A stretch of 59,277 nucleotides of DNA from Mollicutes bacterium (GTDB taxonomy: Bacteria; Bacillota_I; Bacilli_A; RF39; UBA660), in the NCBI GenBank assembly GCA_012521575.1, contig JAAYMD010000022.1:1-59277 (forward strand), given 5' to 3'. A model generated the notes under the pieces. That model was not told the origin of the DNA. It saw nothing but the letters and a program-made list of their open reading frames with translations, and did not search any database. Shown piece by piece: positions 35,741-59,277 of this stretch. Position 1 is the first letter of the stretch. Every line of letters starts with the position of its first letter. The position numbers and the translations under genes were made by a program.

Positions 35741-36628
35741 CTACTCCTTTATATTGAAAATTTCTAAAATTCTATTTAAATCTGCAACATTATTAAATTT
35801 TATGATAATTTTATTGTCTTTTATTTTTACTTTTGTGTCAAGCTTTTCACACAATAATTCTTCAACATATTTGTAATCTTCGTTTTTCTCAGATATATTT
35901 GTTTTACGTTTAATTTTTACTCTTTTTTCAAATTCTTTAGAATCTGTTTTTTCTTCTAATTCGCGAACTGGTATATTTTCCTCAACTATTTTTTGCGCTG
36001 TTTCAATGATTTGTTTTTCATCTTCTAATTTACTTAAAACTCGAGCATGTCCCATCGATATTTCTTTTTTTGTAATCATATCTTGAACTTCTTTAGGTAG
36101 TCTCAAAAGTCCTAGCATATTAGTAATATGACTTCTACTTTTTCCTACTTTTTTTGCTAATTGTTCATGAGTTAAATTTAATTTATCTATCATTGATTGG
36201 TATGCTATAGCTTCTTCAATGGCATTTAAATTTTCTCTTTGTAAATTTTCAAGAAGGGCGATTTCCATCATTTGTTCGTCAGTAAAATCTCGAATAATTG
36301 CAGGAATTGTTTCTAACCCCAATTTTTTGCTAGCACGAAATCTTCTTTCACCAGCAATAATTTCATATCCTTTAATACTCTTTTTAACGATGATTGGTTG
36401 AATTACTCCGTGCTCTTTAATTGAAGATGCAAGCTCATCAATAGAACCTTCGTCAAAAGTTTTTCTTGGTTGATACGGATTTGGACGAAGTTCACTTAAT
36501 TTTAAATTTACTATTTCCTCACTATTACTTGTTTCATATATTCTTTTTTCTATGCTGGCCAAATCTAAATTTTCGCTATTGAAAAGTTGTTCTAAACCCA
36601 TTCCTAATGCTCTTTTTTTATTTTCCAT
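35741..36628 (-). CDS. parB: Chromosome partitioning protein ParB/Spo0J (parS-specific type)
   Basis: PNPYQPR and IIAGERRFRA boxes. The HTH KSRSHITNMLGLL...SMGHARVL carries the Spo0J-type Arg/Gly-His signature. Downstream of soj. Confidence 0.9.
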   Translation of the reverse strand: MENKKRALGMGLEQLFNSENLDLASIEKRIYETSNSEEIVNLKLSELRPNPYQPRKTFDEGSIDELASSIKEHGVIQPIIVKKSIKGYEIIAGERRFRASKKLGLETIPAIIRDFTDEQMMEIALLENLQRENLNAIEEAIAYQSMIDKLNLTHEQLAKKVGKSRSHITNMLGLLRLPKEVQDMITKKEISMGHARVLSKLEDEKQIIETAQKIVEENIPVRELEEKTDSKEFEKRVKIKRKTNISEKNEDYKYVEELLCEKLDTKVKIKDNKIIIKFNNVADLNRILEIFNIKE

Positions 36629-37403
36629 TTCGTTCGATCACTTCCTTAGCTAAATTTAAATATGCTTCTGTTCCTCTACTATGAGGATCATATGCTAAAA
36701 TTGGTTTTCCGTGACTTGGTGCTTCAGATAAACGAACTAATCTTGGAATTATTGTATCATATACACGTTCTTTAAAATAACTTTTAATTTCTTCAACAAC
36801 TTCGAGTCCAAGTTTTGTTCTACTATCCAACATTGTTAATAAAACACCTTCAATATCTAAATTAGGATTTAGATTTTTTTGAGCTAACATTATAGTATTT
36901 AGTAATTGCATTATACCTTCTAAGGCAAAGAATTCACATTGAACAGGTATAATTACCGAATCACTTGCTGTTAGAGCATTAGTTGTCAAAATTCCTAATG
37001 ATGGCGGACAATCTATAATAATGTAATCAAATTTTTCTTTTATCTGGTCCAAATGTTTCTTTAATTGTCCAACTTTTGAAAACCCTGGTTCCAATCGACT
37101 CCTATCCATCAATTCAATATCAATTCCTGCTAAATTAATGGTTGCTGGAATAGCATATAAATTTTTAAATTTAGTTTTTATTATTACTTCACCTATAGTT
37201 GCTTTATCTATTAATAAATCATAAATACTTTTATTTATATCTGCTTTAGTAAGACCAATTCCTGTTGTCGTATTTCCTTGTGGGTCTAAATCAACCAATA
37301 AAACTTTTTTTCTTAAAATTCCAAGTGATGCAGCTAGATTGATACTTGACGTTGTTTTTCCAACTCCGCCTTTTTGATTAACAAGTGAAATTATCTTTCC
37401 CAT
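36618..37403 (-). CDS. parA: Chromosome partitioning ATPase ParA/Soj
   Basis: Deviant Walker A NQKGGVGKTT and the DCPPSLG motif. Confidence 0.9.
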   Translation of the reverse strand: MGKIISLVNQKGGVGKTTSSINLAASLGILRKKVLLVDLDPQGNTTTGIGLTKADINKSIYDLLIDKATIGEVIIKTKFKNLYAIPATINLAGIDIELMDRSRLEPGFSKVGQLKKHLDQIKEKFDYIIIDCPPSLGILTTNALTASDSVIIPVQCEFFALEGIMQLLNTIMLAQKNLNPNLDIEGVLLTMLDSRTKLGLEVVEEIKSYFKERVYDTIIPRLVRLSEAPSHGKPILAYDPHSRGTEAYLNLAKEVIERNGK

Positions 37404-41812: not shown

Positions 41813-41842
41813 ATTTTAAAAAAAACTGCCTTTTAAAGCAGT
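41813..41842 (-). terminator. Rho-independent terminator after the noc-like gene
   Basis: On the minus strand, a CTGCTTTAAAAGGCAG hairpin followed by T8. Overlaps the stop codon. Confidence 0.55.
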
Positions 41843-43290
41843 TATTTATTTTTAGTTATTGTAAGAATTACTTGATAGCTATCACCTAAATCTAATTCAT
41901 CAATTTCTAAAAAGTATCCATCTTCTTCTATTCTTTTTGTAAATTCTCTAATTTCTTTAATTATTTCGTTGAATGATTTTTCATTTTTTACATCCTCGTT
42001 ATTATTACTTAAATCAGATATTGTATGGTTAAATGTATATTCATTATTATTGTTTTCAATTATATTGGTTGGTTGTTCTATATCTTCAAAATCATTAAAA
42101 TTAAAATTATAATCAGGTTCATATTTAAAATTATTATCCTCATTATTATTATTTGCTTCAGAGTCAGGTTTATCAATTATTGTTTCATCATAGTTTATTT
42201 CTGGTAAAGTTAATTCTTCATCTAGAAGTAATTGTGAATTTGATAAATCAAATTCAAATCCTTCATTTTGTTCTTTATTTTGTTGACTTAACTTATCTTC
42301 GTTTTCATTTTCTTCTATAAAACTGAAAAATTTACCATGTTTTATTTTTACATCATTTTTATCTTCTTCAACTGGTTTGCTATCTACCATATTTTCATCA
42401 GCTTTAAGTAAACTATCAATATCCGCTAAAGGTTTTTCGACATTTATTTCTTCAGCAGTTTGCTCAATTTTATCAATATCTAAAAATCCAGGTTTTACAT
42501 TATTATCATTAAAAATATTAGTACTACTTGTAGTAACTGGTTCAACAACCTGATTACCATCTAATTCATCAAATATTTCAATATTTTCTATTATCGGAGA
42601 TGAAGGAATATTAAATTTATCTTTTTGTTGCTCATCCATAATATTTTCCTCTTTTCGATCAGTTTTTTTTGGGTTTTTAACACGTAGTAATTTATCAATT
42701 TCGTTATCTGTTTTTCTTACAGTTAATCTTTCGTTTATTATTCTTTTTAACATTTCTTTTTGATCATTTTTATCTTCTAATTTTAACAATGAACGGGCAT
42801 GTCTTTCTGATATTTCATTATTTAATAATGCCTCTTGTACTTCTTCATCTAAATTCAATAGTCTTAATTTGTTAGAAATTGTAGATTGACTAACATCTAA
42901 CCTGGCAGCTAGTGCATCTTGATTCAAATATCCCATTTCTAGTATTTTTTTATACGAAATAGCTTCTTCTATTGGTGATAAATCTTTTCTTTGAATATTT
43001 TCAATTAGCGCGACTTCAGCACTTTGCTTATCATCCATATTACTTATTATCGCAGGGATAGTTTGCTTTCCAGCAATTAAACTTGCCTTATATCTTCTTT
43101 CACCAGCAATAATTTCATATTTATCTCCAATTTCTCTAACAATAATTGGCTGTATCACACCATGCTCTTTAATTGAATCAGCTAATTCATTAAGTGCATT
43201 TTCATCAAATTTTATTCTTGGCTGAAAACGATTGGGTAATATATCATCAAGATTTAATTCAACAACTTTTTTATCACTTTCATCGTTCAT
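41842..43290 (-). CDS. noc: Noc-type ParB family protein with a long low-complexity insertion
   Basis: ParB N-domain (LPNRFQPR, IIAGERRYKAS). The HTH SQSTISNKLRLL...SERHARSL matches the B. subtilis Noc signature (GQSTIANKLRLL...TERHARAL). The C-terminus (FNEIIKEIREFTKRIEEDGYFLEIDELDLGDSYQVILTITK) resembles the Noc C-terminus. Lies next to rsmG, as in Bacillus. Confidence 0.8.
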   Translation of the reverse strand: MNDESDKKVVELNLDDILPNRFQPRIKFDENALNELADSIKEHGVIQPIIVREIGDKYEIIAGERRYKASLIAGKQTIPAIISNMDDKQSAEVALIENIQRKDLSPIEEAISYKKILEMGYLNQDALAARLDVSQSTISNKLRLLNLDEEVQEALLNNEISERHARSLLKLEDKNDQKEMLKRIINERLTVRKTDNEIDKLLRVKNPKKTDRKEENIMDEQQKDKFNIPSSPIIENIEIFDELDGNQVVEPVTTSSTNIFNDNNVKPGFLDIDKIEQTAEEINVEKPLADIDSLLKADENMVDSKPVEEDKNDVKIKHGKFFSFIEENENEDKLSQQNKEQNEGFEFDLSNSQLLLDEELTLPEINYDETIIDKPDSEANNNNEDNNFKYEPDYNFNFNDFEDIEQPTNIIENNNNEYTFNHTISDLSNNNEDVKNEKSFNEIIKEIREFTKRIEEDGYFLEIDELDLGDSYQVILTITKNK

Positions 43291-43358
43291 TTACAATCGT
43301 ACCTCCCCTATTTATCCCTTATAATTATATAATACTATATTTTAATAAATAAAACAAC

Positions 43359-43386
43359 TTTTTTTGGGAAATATTTCCCAAAAAAA
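43359..43386. repeat. 28-bp perfect palindrome TTTTTTTGGGAAATATTTCCCAAAAAAA in the rsmG-noc spacer
   Basis: Read directly from the sequence. The core is made of two NBS half-sites in everted order (GGGAAAT|ATTTCCC). Confidence 0.9.
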
Positions 43387-43403
43387 AAGAGAGAGAAATC
43401 ACT

Positions 43404-44108
43404 TTATAGGGGCTCTTTTTTTATTTTGGCATAATCTCGTGGATAAATATTCGGAATTTTTCCTTTTTTTTGCACTACAATTAATGCTCGTTGGCTATTT
43501 TCAATTGGTAATTTAAATTCAATAACTTCTTTAATTTTAGTGTTTAATTTTTTTATAGCTTTTTTTGATAAAAATATTTCCCGGGAAATATTTGCTTTCA
43601 TTGCAATAAAAAATTTTTCTTTTTTCACAATTGGTATACAATATTCTAGCAAAATATTAAGAGGGGCGACCGCCCTTGCTGTGACAACATCAAATCTATC
43701 TTTGTTTTTTCGACCAAATTCTTCGGCACGAGCATGAATTGTATAAATTTTCTTTAGTTTCAATTTATTTATAACTTCATTTAAAAAGATAATTCTTTTT
43801 TGTAACGAATCAACCAGTGTGACTTCTAGATTGGGAAATAAAATTTTTATTACAACTCCAGGAAATCCTGCTCCTGAACCTACATCACAAAAGTTCTGTT
43901 GTTTTTCTAAATCAATAGCACGCACCAAGGTTGCTGAATCATAAAAATGTTTTAAATATACATCTTCTTTTTTATTTATTGTAGTTAAATTCATTTTGTT
44001 ATTCCATTCTATTAGTAATTTATAATACATTTGAAATTGCTTAATTTGCTCATCTGTTAGTTTAATACCTATTTTTTTTATATTATCAATAAATTCTTTT
44101 TCATTCAT
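43404..44108 (-). CDS. rsmG: 16S rRNA (guanine527-N7)-methyltransferase RsmG (GidB)
   Basis: SAM motif DVGSGAGFPG and position after mnmG. Confidence 0.9.
   Translation of the reverse strand: MNEKEFIDNIKKIGIKLTDEQIKQFQMYYKLLIEWNNKMNLTTINKKEDVYLKHFYDSATLVRAIDLEKQQNFCDVGSGAGFPGVVIKILFPNLEVTLVDSLQKRIIFLNEVINKLKLKKIYTIHARAEEFGRKNKDRFDVVTARAVAPLNILLEYCIPIVKKEKFFIAMKANISREIFLSKKAIKKLNTKIKEVIEFKLPIENSQRALIVVQKKGKIPNIYPRDYAKIKKEPL
43576..43589. other. Noc-binding site (NBS) consensus inside the rsmG coding sequence
   Basis: ATTTCCCGGGAAAT is an exact match. The palindrome extends to 22 bp, AAATATTTCCCGGGAAATATTT (43572-43593). Confidence 0.75.
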
Positions 44109-56266: not shown

Positions 56267-58708
56267 ATGGATAAAAAGATACAAGTTGTAAATATATCCG
56301 ATGAAATGGAAAGCTCTTTTCTTGATTATTCAATGAGTGTCATAGTATCAAGAGCACTTCCAGATGTCCGAGATGGTCTAAAACCAGTTCATAGACGTAT
56401 ATTATACACAATGTATGAGGAAGGATTCTTACCGGATAAGAAGTATGTTAAAAGTGCAAATACAGTTGGTAATGTTCTTGCCCATTATCACCCACACGGA
56501 GATGCTGCTGTGTATGATACTATGGTAAGAATGGCACAACCATTTAATTATAGATATCCCTTAGTTGATGGTCATGGAAATTTTGGTTCTATAGATGGTT
56601 ATGCTGCGGCTGCACAACGTTATACAGAAGCAAGACTAGCAAAAATTTCAATGGAGTTGTTACGTGATATAAATAAGGACACTGTTGATTTTATGAAAAA
56701 CTATGATGGTGAGCGAATAGAACCAGTAGTTTTACCAAGTCGATTTCCTAATATTTTAGTAAACGGAACAATGGGAATTGCGGTAGGGATGGCTACTAAT
56801 ATTCCTCCCCACAATCTAGGTGAAGTAATAGATGGATGTATAGCTTATATAGATAATAATGATATTACAACGTCGGAATTAATGGAATTTATTAAAGGTC
56901 CTGATTTTCCAACTGGTGCTAGTATTTTAGGAAATAGTGGAATAAAAAAAGCATATGAAACAGGAAAAGGTAATATTACAATCCGCTCAAAATGTGAAAT
57001 TGTTGAACATAAAAATGGAAAACAAAGTATTGTTATCACAGAAATTCCATATCAAGTTAATAAATCAACATTAATTTCTAAAATTGCAGATTTAGTAAAA
57101 GATAAGGTTATAGATGGTATAACGGATTTACGTGATGAGACTGACTTAAATGGAATAAGAATTGTGATCGAACTTAGAAGAGATGTGATTGCAAATGTTA
57201 TTTTAAATAATTTATATAAATATACAAATTTACAAACTTCTTATAGTATTCATCTTTTAGCGCTAGTTGATGGTGAACCTAAACTTTTAGGATTAAAAGA
57301 TATAATTGAAAAATATGTAGAACACCAAAAAGTAGTAATTTATAGAAGAACAAAATTTGATTTAGAAAAAGCTGAAAATCGCGCTCATATTTTAGAAGGT
57401 CTTGTAATTGCGCTCGAAAATATTGATGATATAATAGAAATAATTAAAAAAGCTGCTGATGATAAAAGCGCTATTGAACAATTGATTAGTAAATATAATT
57501 TAACAATTGAACAAGCAGAAGCAATACTTGAAATGAAGTTAAGAAGATTAACAGGCCTTGAAAGAAGTAAAATAGAGGAAGAATTAAAAGAATTAACTTT
57601 ATTAATTGCAGATTTAAAAGAAATATTATCAAGTAATGAAAAAATTTCCAATATTATAAAGGAAGAATTATTAGAAATAAAAAGTAAATATAAAGACGAG
57701 AGAAGAACAAAAATTGATATTACAGCTATTGAACATATTGAAGATGAATCATTAATTCCGGTAGAAGATATAGTAGTAACTTTAACGAATAATGGTTATA
57801 TAAAAAGAATAACAAGTGAAACATATCGCACACAAAACCGTGGTGGTGTTGGAATTAAAGGAATGTCGATAAATGAAGAAGATATTGTAGATCAATTATT
57901 AATAGCAAAAACTCATGATTATATTATGTTTTTTACTAATAAAGGAAAAGTTTATCGAACAAAAGGTTACACAATACCTGAATATAGCAGACAATCTAAA
58001 GGATTACCAATTGTAAATCTATTACCATTAGAAAAAGATGAAAAAGTAAAAGTTTTATTAAAAATAAACGAAGAAGACAAAAATAATTATTTTGTATTTT
58101 GTACACAAAAAGGGTTGGTAAAACGAACAAAAATATCAGAATTTGAAAATATTAGAGTAACTGGAAAAATTGCCATAACATTAAAAGAAGATGATGAATT
58201 AATTTCTGTAAGAAAAACAAATGGTAATAATGATATTATGATAGCAACAGAAAATGGAAATATGATTAGATTTAATGAAAAAGAAGTAAGAGTAATGGGA
58301 AGAAATGCTAGTGGTGTTAAAGGAATTAATATAAACAACGACAAATGTGTAGGATGCGAAATCGCCACTAATAATCAATTAGTGTTAATTGTTACTGAAA
58401 AAGGTTATGGTAAAAAAACTGATATAAATGAATATAGAACAACACATCGTGGCACGAAAGGTGTTAAAGCACTAAATATTACTGAAAAAAATGGTAACAT
58501 TGTAGCATTCAAATTGGTGAATGGGGATGAAGATTTAATGATAATTACCGATTCAGGAACAATTATTAAATTATCTTTAAAACAAATTTCGACTACAGGT
58601 CGTATTGCTCAAGGAGTAAAACTAATAAATTTAAAAGATGACCAAAAAGTAAGTTCCATTGCTATAGACAATAATATAGATGACAATTTAGAAAACGATG
58701 ATAAATAA
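56267..58708 (+). CDS. gyrA: DNA gyrase subunit A
   Basis: [12 protein letters not shown], the QRDR-region [18 protein letters not shown] and the active-site [11 protein letters not shown]. The ATG at 56267 lies 9 nt after an AAGGAG RBS. Confidence 0.97.
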
Positions 58709-58724
58709 TTTATCATCGTTTTAA
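58692..58724 (+). terminator. Rho-independent terminator after gyrA
   Basis: AAAACGATGATAAA (58692-58705) pairs with TTTATCATCGTTTT (58709-58722). Spans the stop codon. Confidence 0.7.
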
Positions 58725-58740
58725 TGTTTCACGTGAAACA
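58725..58740. other. parS site 1 (TGTTTCACGTGAAACA)
   Basis: Exact match to the symmetric form of the Spo0J/ParB parS consensus TGTTNCACGTGAAACA. Confidence 0.85.
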
Positions 58741-58914
58741 ATACTTTTACATTTTATAATATATTTTTATTCAAAATATTTTTGTAAACAAAAAAAAGAG
58801 CACATTATTAAATATCATCGACGATTTGTTGAAATTAAAAAATTTTTTAATGATTAATAAATTTAAATTTTATATGAAGTATTAAATTGATCTAGTGTAA
58901 ATAATATATGAAAT

Positions 58915-58930
58915 TATTTCCCGGGAAATA
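58915..58930. other. Noc-binding site (NBS), perfect 16-bp palindrome TATTTCCCGGGAAATA
   Basis: Exact match to the B. subtilis NBS consensus core ATTTCCCGGGAAAT with symmetric flanks. Lies 1 bp from parS site 2. Confidence 0.8.
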
Positions 58931-58931
58931 A

Positions 58932-58947
58932 TGTTTCACGTGAAACA
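58932..58947. other. parS site 2 (TGTTTCACGTGAAACA)
   Basis: Exact 16-mer. With flanks it is the 18-bp palindrome ATGTTTCACGTGAAACAT. Confidence 0.85.
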
Positions 58948-59063
58948 TCATTTTATTATTATATTGATATGTTAAAAAAATAATAATTAATATATTAAAT
59001 AATTTGATACAGTTTTTTTTATTTTTTAGTAGTAAAACATATAAAATATTTTTCACTAACCAA

Positions 59064-59079
59064 TGTTTCACGTGAAACA
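59064..59079. other. parS site 3 (TGTTTCACGTGAAACA)
   Basis: Exact 16-mer, 18-bp palindrome with flanks. Confidence 0.85.
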
Positions 59080-59111
59080 TTAAATTGATCTAGTATAATA
59101 ATGTATAAAAA

Positions 59112-59127
59112 TTTTTTTCGAGAAATA
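59112..59127. other. Degenerate NBS-like element (TTTTTTTCGAGAAATA, 4 of 16 positions differ)
   Basis: Occupies the position homologous to the perfect NBS in repeat copy A. Probably not a functional Noc site. Confidence 0.4.
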
Positions 59128-59128
59128 A

Positions 59129-59144
59129 TGTTTCACGTGAAACA
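59129..59144. other. parS site 4 (TGTTTCACGTGAAACA)
   Basis: Exact 16-mer, 18-bp palindrome with flanks. Confidence 0.85.
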
Positions 59145-59174
59145 TTATAATAAATGTGAAAAAGTAAGTAATTC

Positions 59175-59203
59175 TTGCTTTTTTTTAAAAAATGTTATAT
59201 TAT
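59175..59203 (+). promoter_or_regulatory. Candidate sigma-A promoter of the SRP RNA gene
   Basis: TTGCTT (59175-59180), 17 nt, TATTAT (59198-59203). The predicted start near 59210 coincides with the first base of the terminal helix. Confidence 0.4.
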
Positions 59204-59209
59204 TAATTT

Positions 59210-59277
59210 GACACAACATATATAATCGAACCAGGTCAGGATCGGAAGATAGCAGCCTTAAGATTCCCTATATGTGT
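59210..59277 (+). ncRNA. ffs: Signal recognition particle RNA (4.5S/scRNA), running to or past the window edge
   Basis: CCAGGTCAGGATCGGAAGATAGCAGCC matches the universal domain IV motif CCAGGUCAGGUCCGGAAGGAAGCAGCC, including a GGAA tetraloop. The 5' ACACA..ATATA..AATC pairs with the 3' GATT..TATAT..GTGT. The 3' end is not visible. Confidence 0.75.

Follow-up and report, generated by a model that had tools for sequence, protein, structure and literature searches.

A long-form Noc-lineage ParB paralog of genome-reduced Bacilli lacks the N-terminal membrane module, carries a motif-bearing acidic linker and occurs with NBS clustered among parS beside the replication origin

We analyzed a gene encoding a 482-amino-acid (aa) ParB-family protein in a 59,277-nucleotide stretch (hereafter, the window) of contig JAAYMD010000022.1 from the genome of a Mollicutes bacterium (GCA_012521575.1). 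This protein, hereafter the long form, belongs to the lineage of Noc, has a DNA-binding domain of the type that recognizes Noc-binding sites (NBS), has lost the N-terminal membrane module and carries a long acidic linker with conserved motifs; the NBS show a centromere-like arrangement and are interleaved with parS. Noc is the textbook ParB paralog, which combines a new DNA specificity with a cytidine triphosphate (CTP)-gated membrane helix for nucleoid occlusion; Noc clamps normally link the chromosome to the membrane and thereby prevent division across it. Judging from the sequence data, the long form is probably a Noc-derived CTP clamp repurposed as a factor associated with the origin or centromere, i.e., its role would be centered on the origin rather than consist of chromosome-wide nucleoid occlusion. 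No publication on the long-form architecture, its site layout or nucleoid occlusion in this lineage was found.

Membership of the protein in the Noc lineage, proposed in an earlier note made from the sequence alone, was borne out by both phylogeny and structure matches. In an IQ-TREE phylogeny (LG+C20) of a 205-aa core, which included 27 long forms, canonical Nocs, short Nocs and Spo0J/ParB proteins from related genomes, the protein was placed inside rather than outside the Noc clade, and this clade (including the long forms) was split from all Spo0J/ParB proteins by a long branch (support 100/100). The long forms constituted a subclade within the Noc clade (96/88), with a canonical Noc carrying an N-terminal helix as its sister. 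The AlphaFold2 model, in which the N-domain, the helix-turn-helix (HTH) domain and the C-terminal domain each had a predicted local distance difference test (pLDDT) score of approx. 90, gave the Noc structures 7NG0 and 7NFU as top Foldseek matches, with KorB structures also among the fold matches, and its DNA-binding domain superposed on the structure of the Noc DNA-binding domain with NBS (6Y93; template modeling score 0.90-0.92, Foldseek). Comparison of the core to sequences of solved structures yielded 211 bits for G. thermoleovorans Noc as compared to 178 bits for T. thermophilus Spo0J.

The best NCBIfam model for the native protein was nucleoid_noc (TIGR04285; 275.8 bits, model positions 1-211 of 255), as compared to 187.5 bits for the generic parB_part model; this score is under the curated TIGR04285 cut-off (315 bits), while Turicibacter Noc scored 354.5 bits. 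When residues 215-430 were deleted, TIGR04285 aligned end to end (1-255 of 255) with 293.1 bits, which is still below the cut-off. This full alignment after linker deletion indicates that the C-terminal domain is Noc-type and that the additional residues were inserted into the linker, in agreement with earlier claims of a Noc-like C-terminal end and of an approx. 230-aa insertion between the DNA-binding core and the C-terminal domain.

At the four HTH specificity positions (173/179/184/201) the protein has Q135, K141, N146 and R163 (QKNR). Noc specificity residues at these positions are QKKR, and a single Lys at position 179 or 184 suffices (Jalal et al., PMC7383237). The residues R173 and G201, which are parS-specific, are absent (Q135 and R163 stand in their places). 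These residues suggest that the HTH is of the NBS-specific type. The motifs quoted in the earlier note, i.e., GERR and SQST..NK..SERHAR in the long form and SRSH..NM..MGHAR in the neighboring Spo0J (35741..36628), were all found, and the CTP-binding motifs of ParB proteins (GERR box and ENIQR) are both present in the long form. The N-terminal ParA-interacting peptide LG[KR]GL..L is absent from the 482-aa protein; the window Spo0J (295 aa) keeps this peptide (RALGMGLEQLF) as well as the parS-type residues.

A 10-aa amphipathic helix (alpha1), a second helix (alpha2) and an 8-aa loop are Noc-specific, and the membrane helix is regulated by the adjoining CTP-gated N-domain (Jalal et al. 2021, PMC8429893). 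Canonical Nocs from related genomes and from the protein database start with MKSPFSRFFGGGEK.. (MKSPFSRFFGG..) in Bacillaceae and with MFN[IF]FSRDDS.. in Turicibacter, followed by a further 15-35 residues before strand beta1. In the long form, on the other hand, only 7 residues (MNDESDK) precede beta1; the N-terminus reads MNDESDKK and continues directly into this strand (VVELNLDDILPNRFQPR). All of the 120 closest homologs likewise start 4-8 residues before beta1 and lack the membrane module, so that the absence of an N-terminal membrane helix, as claimed earlier, characterizes the long forms as compared to canonical Nocs. As also noted earlier, an in-frame TAA (43293-43291) stands directly 5' of the ATG start codon (43290-43288; GGAGG at 43306-43302, stop codon at 41842-41844); a longer N-terminus is thus impossible, which rules out an upstream start for the 482-aa protein.

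Some 247-255-aa Noc-clade proteins of other families were also found to lack the N-terminal membrane helix (see Table 1), and loss of the membrane module may thus be recurrent in genome-reduced Bacilli. One of these short proteins (the G025 copy) is strongly diverged, with NRYKTR for NRFQPR and EGHAK for ERHAR.

The linker of the 482-aa protein (residues ~206-436) contains 26% Asp plus Glu and 16% Asn and has a net charge of -39. Homolog linkers range from 95 to 410 aa (median 274), with a net charge per residue of -0.16, 0.5% Arg and neither Trp nor Cys. The earlier description of this region as a low-complexity insertion held for its acidic and Asn-rich composition; the linker is not featureless, however, as it contains strongly conserved short motifs, which keep a fixed order across homologs (M1 to M4, defined from an alignment of 45 diverse members and counted over 120 homologs; Table 1). 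The insertion is found clade-wide and is thus not strain-specific drift. AlphaFold2 predicted the linker to be disordered except for M2, which has a pLDDT of 70-76 and short helices at residues 272-278 and 291-294. The M2 consensus is N-P-G-F-[ML]-D-I-D-K-I-E-x-x-A-x-D-I...E-K-P-x-A-D...L-L, and conservation reaches 90% or more at nine of its positions (P267, G268, F269, D271, I275, A279, I282, L294 and L295). With a helical hydrophobic moment of 0.64, the highest in the linker, and an acidic polar face, M2 would be better suited to dock a protein or to act in autoinhibition than to bind an anionic membrane. M3 follows M2 at a constrained spacing (44-91 residues, median 55), and its Phe pair (F321, F322) is invariant. 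This motif, in which a Phe-rich patch containing a single basic residue precedes acidic residues, resembles the Turicibacter-type MFN[IF]FSRDD and Bacillus-type FSRFFG helices, and it is a possible internal anchor to the membrane or to a partner. Both the conserved linker motifs and the clustering of NBS described below go beyond the earlier note.

Aromatic-acidic motifs such as M4 are approx. 3-fold enriched as compared to shuffled linkers. In some homologs the distal linker has grown by tandem repeats, e.g., approx. 20 copies of PMEPVMPSFETPVEQQ in P0263 and repeats of YESVPTYEVPEVPVYETPV in P0245; these proline/aromatic/acidic repeat units are M4-like. No known domain was detected in the linker or the C-terminal domain in Pfam at E values up to 10, and profile searches of PDB sequences with the linker or the C-terminal domain gave no match. 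A phmmer search with the M1-M3 module against 1.84 billion representatives did not reveal this module in any other architecture; apart from one spurious repeat protein, the 37 matches were members of the same family or C-terminal fragments of such members. M1 to M4 had no convincing match elsewhere in the same genome. We also considered whether the linker is a remnant of a fused second Noc copy, but rejected this, as an hhalign comparison of the M2-M3 profile to the canonical Noc profile gave a probability of 0.13%.

The NBS core ATTTCCCGGGAAAT occurs exactly four times in the genome analyzed here (936 kb, 27.7% GC, 95 contigs, estimated 97.8% complete), each time within a perfect 16-mer (TATTTCCCGGGAAATA), as compared to a calculated chance expectation of approx. 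0.002 for the 14-bp core at this GC content; no further NBS with 1 or 2 mismatches was found in the genome. Two copies are located in the window and two on contig C15. As C15 opens with the parS/ffs repeat that closes the window, C15 continues the window, and all four NBS are thus located within roughly -6 to +17 kb of oriC (placed at approx. 49.4-49.8 kb of the window by GC skew and dnaA), which they bracket at about -6 and +9 to +17 kb. The NBS in rsmG encodes ISREI through rare codons (TCC, 3.7% of Ser codons; CGG, 2.1% of Arg codons), and relatives hold an NBS at the same rsmG position.

The assembly break falls in the repeated centromere array (window 58700-59277 and C15:1-600), which is composed of ~65-210-bp units, each with a perfect parS; the start of the signal recognition particle RNA gene (ffs) follows the array on both contigs. 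Several units carry a decayed NBS (TTTTTTCGAGAAAT, 4 mismatches) at the same 1-bp offset from parS, as if units of NBS plus parS had been duplicated.

Among relatives, we scanned one genome per genus (151 genera) for the 16-bp NBS at up to 1 mismatch. NBS were present in 136 genera, with a median of 2 per genome (134 genomes with 1-7 NBS, outliers with 11 and 23), while a reversed-pattern control gave a match in one genome. NBS that share a contig span no more than 23 kb, and they are located no more than 25 kb from the long-form gene if their contig also carries it; in one closed 1.2-Mb genome there are only 3 NBS, 14-24 kb from this gene. In 23 of 80 related loci, as well as in the window, an NBS is located 75-306 bp upstream of the start codon. 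Moreover, NBS and parS are interleaved in the gyrA-tadA/ffs/dnaX spacer in 7 of the 8 relatives inspected. For example, G017 has 7 NBS and 5 parS in ~115-bp units with a fixed 49-bp offset and G011 has three 66-bp units of NBS plus parS, while G018 has 3 NBS in the spacer with 6 parS (and a fourth NBS in dnaX), G022 has 3 NBS and 5 parS, and G019 has 4 NBS and 7 parS; in G021 an NBS abuts parS, as in the window. An unusually dense array was observed in the gyrA-tadA spacer of a closed 1.2-Mb relative (L108; G041:C1:1111794-1112350), i.e., 16 perfect parS in 34-bp tandem units; the NBS variants of this relative are instead located in coding sequences that flank the spacer (mfd/pth region, holB, dnaX and the gyrA/gyrB junction).

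For S. aureus Noc, 41 loci within +/-700 kb have been reported, each with spreading over 8-10 kb, and canonical NBS show a bias to the origin and do not occur at the terminus, but are spread across half to two-thirds of the chromosome around the origin (PMC5540599). Turicibacter (Noc at 354 bits) has five 1-mismatch NBS over 2.4 Mb, and in other families of the class, including genomes with canonical Noc, NBS are mostly 1-mismatch variants, which are distributed over many contigs or lie megabases apart. This broad scatter was not observed in the long-form family, which shows a centromere-like layout of few sites, all within approx. 25 kb of oriC. The origin-proximal distribution of NBS lends weight to the earlier proposal of a different mode of tethering or another role for this protein.

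The long form is widely distributed. The 120 best database homologs (344-660 aa) are labeled as metagenome-assembled Bacilli or Mollicutes, and relatives are encoded in at least 596 species-representative genomes (with titles including Bacilli, Tenericutes, Ca. Fimihabitans and Acholeplasma sp. CAG:878), spanning at least 150 genera. All 25 genomes checked in the family of the window organism encode one long form (340-622 aa, without internal stop) and one ~296-aa Spo0J. The architecture is thus a property of one family of genome-reduced uncultured Bacilli and is not strain-specific. The whole gene was also present, with 5-9 substitutions and without indels in its open reading frame, on contigs of independent metagenomes (anaerobic digester, compost, landfill and biogas), indicating that the long linker is real and ruling out an assembly or frameshift artefact. 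These environments (anaerobic digester, landfill, compost and biogas fermenter) are also the sources of the near-identical copies of the gene of this species, and many relatives were from gut and rumen samples.

Table 1. Features of the long-form gene, its product and its surroundings. Positions refer to the window unless a contig of this genome (C15) or another genome (G) is named; residue numbers refer to the 482-aa protein
Feature	Position	Strand	Remarks
Long-form Noc-type ParB paralog gene	41842..43290	-	482 aa; open reading frame listing, Pfam and NCBIfam matches
ParB N-terminal (CTP-binding) domain, residues 8-100	42991..43269	-	PF02195, E 6.5e-34; pLDDT ~90
HTH DNA-binding domain, residues 102-201	42688..42987	-	PF17762 (HTH_ParB), E 6.5e-31
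Acidic Asn-rich, mostly disordered linker, residues 206-436	41983..42675	-	pLDDT <50 except M2; no Pfam match
M1 (KFNIPSSPIIEN), residues 225-236	42583..42618	-	consensus F-N-I-P-[ST]-x-P-I-I; 83/120 homologs
M2 (KPGFLDIDKIEQTAEEINVEKPLADIDSLLK), residues 266-296	42403..42495	-	acidic amphipathic helix and conserved LL; 117/120 homologs
M3 (HGKFFSFIE), residues 318-326	42313..42339	-	consensus G-[KR]-F-F-[NS]-hydrophobic-hydrophobic; 117/120 homologs
M4 (EPDYNFNFNDFEDI), residues 391-404	42079..42120	-	aromatic-acidic, EPDYNFNF-like; 25/120 homologs
Noc-type C-terminal (dimerization) domain, residues 437-482	41845..41982	-	one helix and two strands; pLDDT ~91; conserved in 120/120 homologs
NBS (TATTTCCCGGGAAATA)	43575..43590 (site list 43576)	.	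in rsmG, 286 bp upstream of the long-form start codon
NBS (TATTTCCCGGGAAATA)	58915..58930 (site list 58916)	.	spacer after gyrA, 1 bp from a parS 16-mer
NBS	C15:2048		inside dnaX
NBS	C15:7006		inside rsmI
parS array (TGTTTCACGTGAAACA)	58725..59144 (copies at 58725, 58932, 59064 and 59129)	.	continues on contig C15
soj and spo0J, canonical ParA/ParB pair	35741..37403 (soj 36618-37403; spo0J 35741-36628)	-	tree placement, motifs
Intrinsic terminator directly after the long-form gene	41824..41843	-	terminator scan
Intrinsic terminator hairpin of rsmG	43358..43387	-	terminator scan; RNA fold -13.4 kcal/mol, z -2.8
Short Noc-clade proteins without membrane helix	G034:C1:1853913-1854665; G037:C83:2955-3704; G025:C29:22397-23125

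As intrinsic terminators are located on both sides, the long-form gene represents a single transcription unit. The stem of the rsmG terminator consists of everted NBS half-sites (GGGAAAT|ATTTCCC), and in three relatives (L004, L056 and L017) the same hairpin is overlapped or directly adjoined by a complete NBS, so that three half-sites follow one another; from these sequences, the hairpin may be a remnant or variant of a promoter-proximal NBS. The genome encodes SMC as well as FtsZ, MreB, Mur ligases, MraY and penicillin-binding proteins, and these cell wall and division genes indicate that the organism has a cell wall. Soj and a TadZ-like protein were the only deviant-Walker ATPases found, i.e., no MinD was detected among these ATPases in this 97.8% complete genome. 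A second MinD/ParA was thus rejected as a partner, since the only other candidate is the TadZ-like gene; this gene is part of a Tad/Flp-type pilus locus (C30:2790-7835), which also includes a CpaF-like ATPase, TadB/C-like membrane proteins and small pilin-like open reading frames.

Overall, we propose that the long form would load at NBS, close as a CTP clamp and slide over the origin region; the resulting nucleoprotein complex would be confined to the origin and would adjoin the Spo0J-parS partition complex or intermingle with it. Being flexible, the acidic linker would present M2 and M3 as docking sites, through which the origin or centromere could be coupled either to the membrane or to a partner protein. 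The output would likely be anchoring or organization of the origin, or control of division or replication that is confined to the origin. A more specific version of this proposal, which we put forward only tentatively, is that of a composite centromere, in which a single array beside oriC has interleaved loading sites for Spo0J (parS) and for the long form (NBS), and in which the long form serves as an adaptor, with M2 and M3 linking the partition complex either to a division or segregation partner or to the membrane.

Several observations weigh against an origin-centered clamp of this kind. Box II of the long form (window 43084-43101, residues 64-69) is GERRYK rather than GERRxR; the Arg two residues past GERR is the classical spreading residue of ParB, and where canonical Noc and the window Spo0J have this Arg, Lys68 is invariant throughout the long-form clade. 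M3 was predicted to be disordered rather than helical, with a modest mean hydrophobic moment (0.33), and its likeness to the Noc membrane helices was not significant (position-specific scoring matrices and hhalign). In 15 of the 151 genera no NBS was found at up to 1 mismatch, and a genome from another family of the class (G232) has five NBS, three of them perfect, within 39 kb (G232:C11:111464-150345), the one instance of clustered NBS observed outside the long-form family. The NBS search used the B. subtilis/S. aureus consensus, and weaker dispersed sites (3 or more mismatches) are possible; in addition, a few origin-proximal sites could still provide minimal nucleoid occlusion in a 1-Mb chromosome.

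The last point can be extended to the hypothesis that classical nucleoid occlusion has been kept, with the anchor moved from the N-terminus to M3, so that, in a small cell with a 1-Mb chromosome, the few origin sites, each spreading over 8-10 kb, could keep the Z ring off unsegregated origins. The near-invariance of M3 (117/120 homologs) and its Phe-rich/basic/acidic makeup, similar to the Turicibacter- and Bacillus-type helices, fit this hypothesis, as do the need for a division-site cue in an organism with FtsZ, MreB and a peptidoglycan wall in which MinD was not found, and the fact that canonical NBS are also origin-biased and absent from the terminus (PMC5540599). However, when M3 was assessed as a relocated canonical helix, scoring matrices of the Turicibacter- and Bacillus-type N-termini peaked on M3 in only 23 and 50 of 107 homologs, respectively, and their scores at M3 were not above those of shuffled controls; the likeness is thus a resemblance only, and hhalign revealed no relation (probability 0.13%). 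Moreover, M3 is located in a strongly acidic context and no longer beside the CTP-gated N-domain, while the NBS occupy no more than 3% of the chromosome and alternate with parS, a layout that is centromere-like rather than occlusion-like. We thus consider a relocated anchor for classical occlusion unlikely.

It is also conceivable, but rather improbable, that the long form is mainly a regulatory sliding clamp, similar to KorB or to S. aureus Noc, which acts in autoregulation or in DnaA-dependent control of initiation from NBS near its own gene and oriC. The NBS located 75-306 bp upstream of the start codon (23/80 related loci and the window), the NBS that bracket oriC at -6 and +9 to +17 kb, the KorB structures among the fold matches and the finding that S. 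aureus Noc restrains replication initiation (PMC5540599) all point in this direction. Conversely, most NBS are located in coding sequences (rsmG, dnaX and rsmI) or in the parS spacer rather than in promoters, a terminator stands between the NBS embedded in rsmG and the promoter of the gene, and the long motif-bearing linker would be left without a role. A decaying or neutral paralog, whose linker represents functionless low-complexity drift, could account for the wide variation in linker length (95-410 aa) and in non-motif sequence, for the tandem-repeat expansions in some homologs and for a score below the NCBIfam Noc cut-off, but is effectively refuted by conservation. None of the 25 family genomes has an internal stop in this gene, relatives occur in at least 596 species genomes and independent metagenomes carry an intact gene; the alignment of long forms shows no change in the catalytic and specificity residues, M2 and M3 have been retained with limited variation in their spacing, and perfect NBS palindromes are kept inside coding sequences with rare codons.

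With the Nocs of B. subtilis, G. thermoleovorans and S. aureus, the long form shares its clade in the tree, the Noc-type C-terminal domain, the same 16-bp NBS palindrome in the genome, 54% of the residues of the N-domain and DNA-binding domain (compared to G. thermoleovorans Noc), the same Q, K and R specificity residues and the position of the gene directly after rsmG and next to oriC. It differs from these proteins in lacking alpha1, alpha2 and the loop, in having a 95-410-aa acidic disordered linker with motifs instead of a short basic one, in Asn (Lys in Noc) at position 184, in the GERRYK box II and the sub-threshold TIGR04285 score, and in having 1-7 clustered NBS interleaved with parS as compared to roughly 40-70 NBS over half to two-thirds of the chromosome. 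ParB/Spo0J-parS systems belong to the same superfamily and share the predicted CTP-clamp mechanism, the few palindromic sites beside oriC and a site beside or within the neighborhood of their own gene; the long form, however, has NBS-type residues and no LG[KR]GL peptide, and a genuine Soj/Spo0J pair is separately encoded in the same genome. RicO, RacA and RocS are similar in proposed function only, i.e., recognition of motifs near the origin and bridging of the origin to the membrane or pole; they have an unrelated fold, with a small MerR-like HTH and a coiled coil rather than a ParB-type CTP clamp, and RicO and RocS bridge through an amphipathic helix, whereas membrane binding by the long form is only putative. 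The part that S. aureus Noc plays in replication control is a further functional analogue. KorB of RK2 and other CTP-clamp regulators of the ParB family share the clamp composed of a ParB-type N-domain and HTH, and an upstream loading site could allow regulation by sliding; conversely, KorB shows only ~30% identity, has another operator and acts together with KorA on plasmid promoters, while no promoter targeting was seen here.

The long form represents a natural experiment on which of the features of Noc are separable, as the DNA specificity is kept and the membrane module is absent, and it suggests that two CTP clamps can share one centromere. The M2 and M3 peptides can be tested in vitro together with DNA arrays, without culturing the organism. 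These data also provide a warning for annotation, i.e., "Noc-like" does not imply chromosome-wide nucleoid occlusion. If the composite centromere is true, the Noc lineage would have evolved from, or back to, a centromere-bound function.

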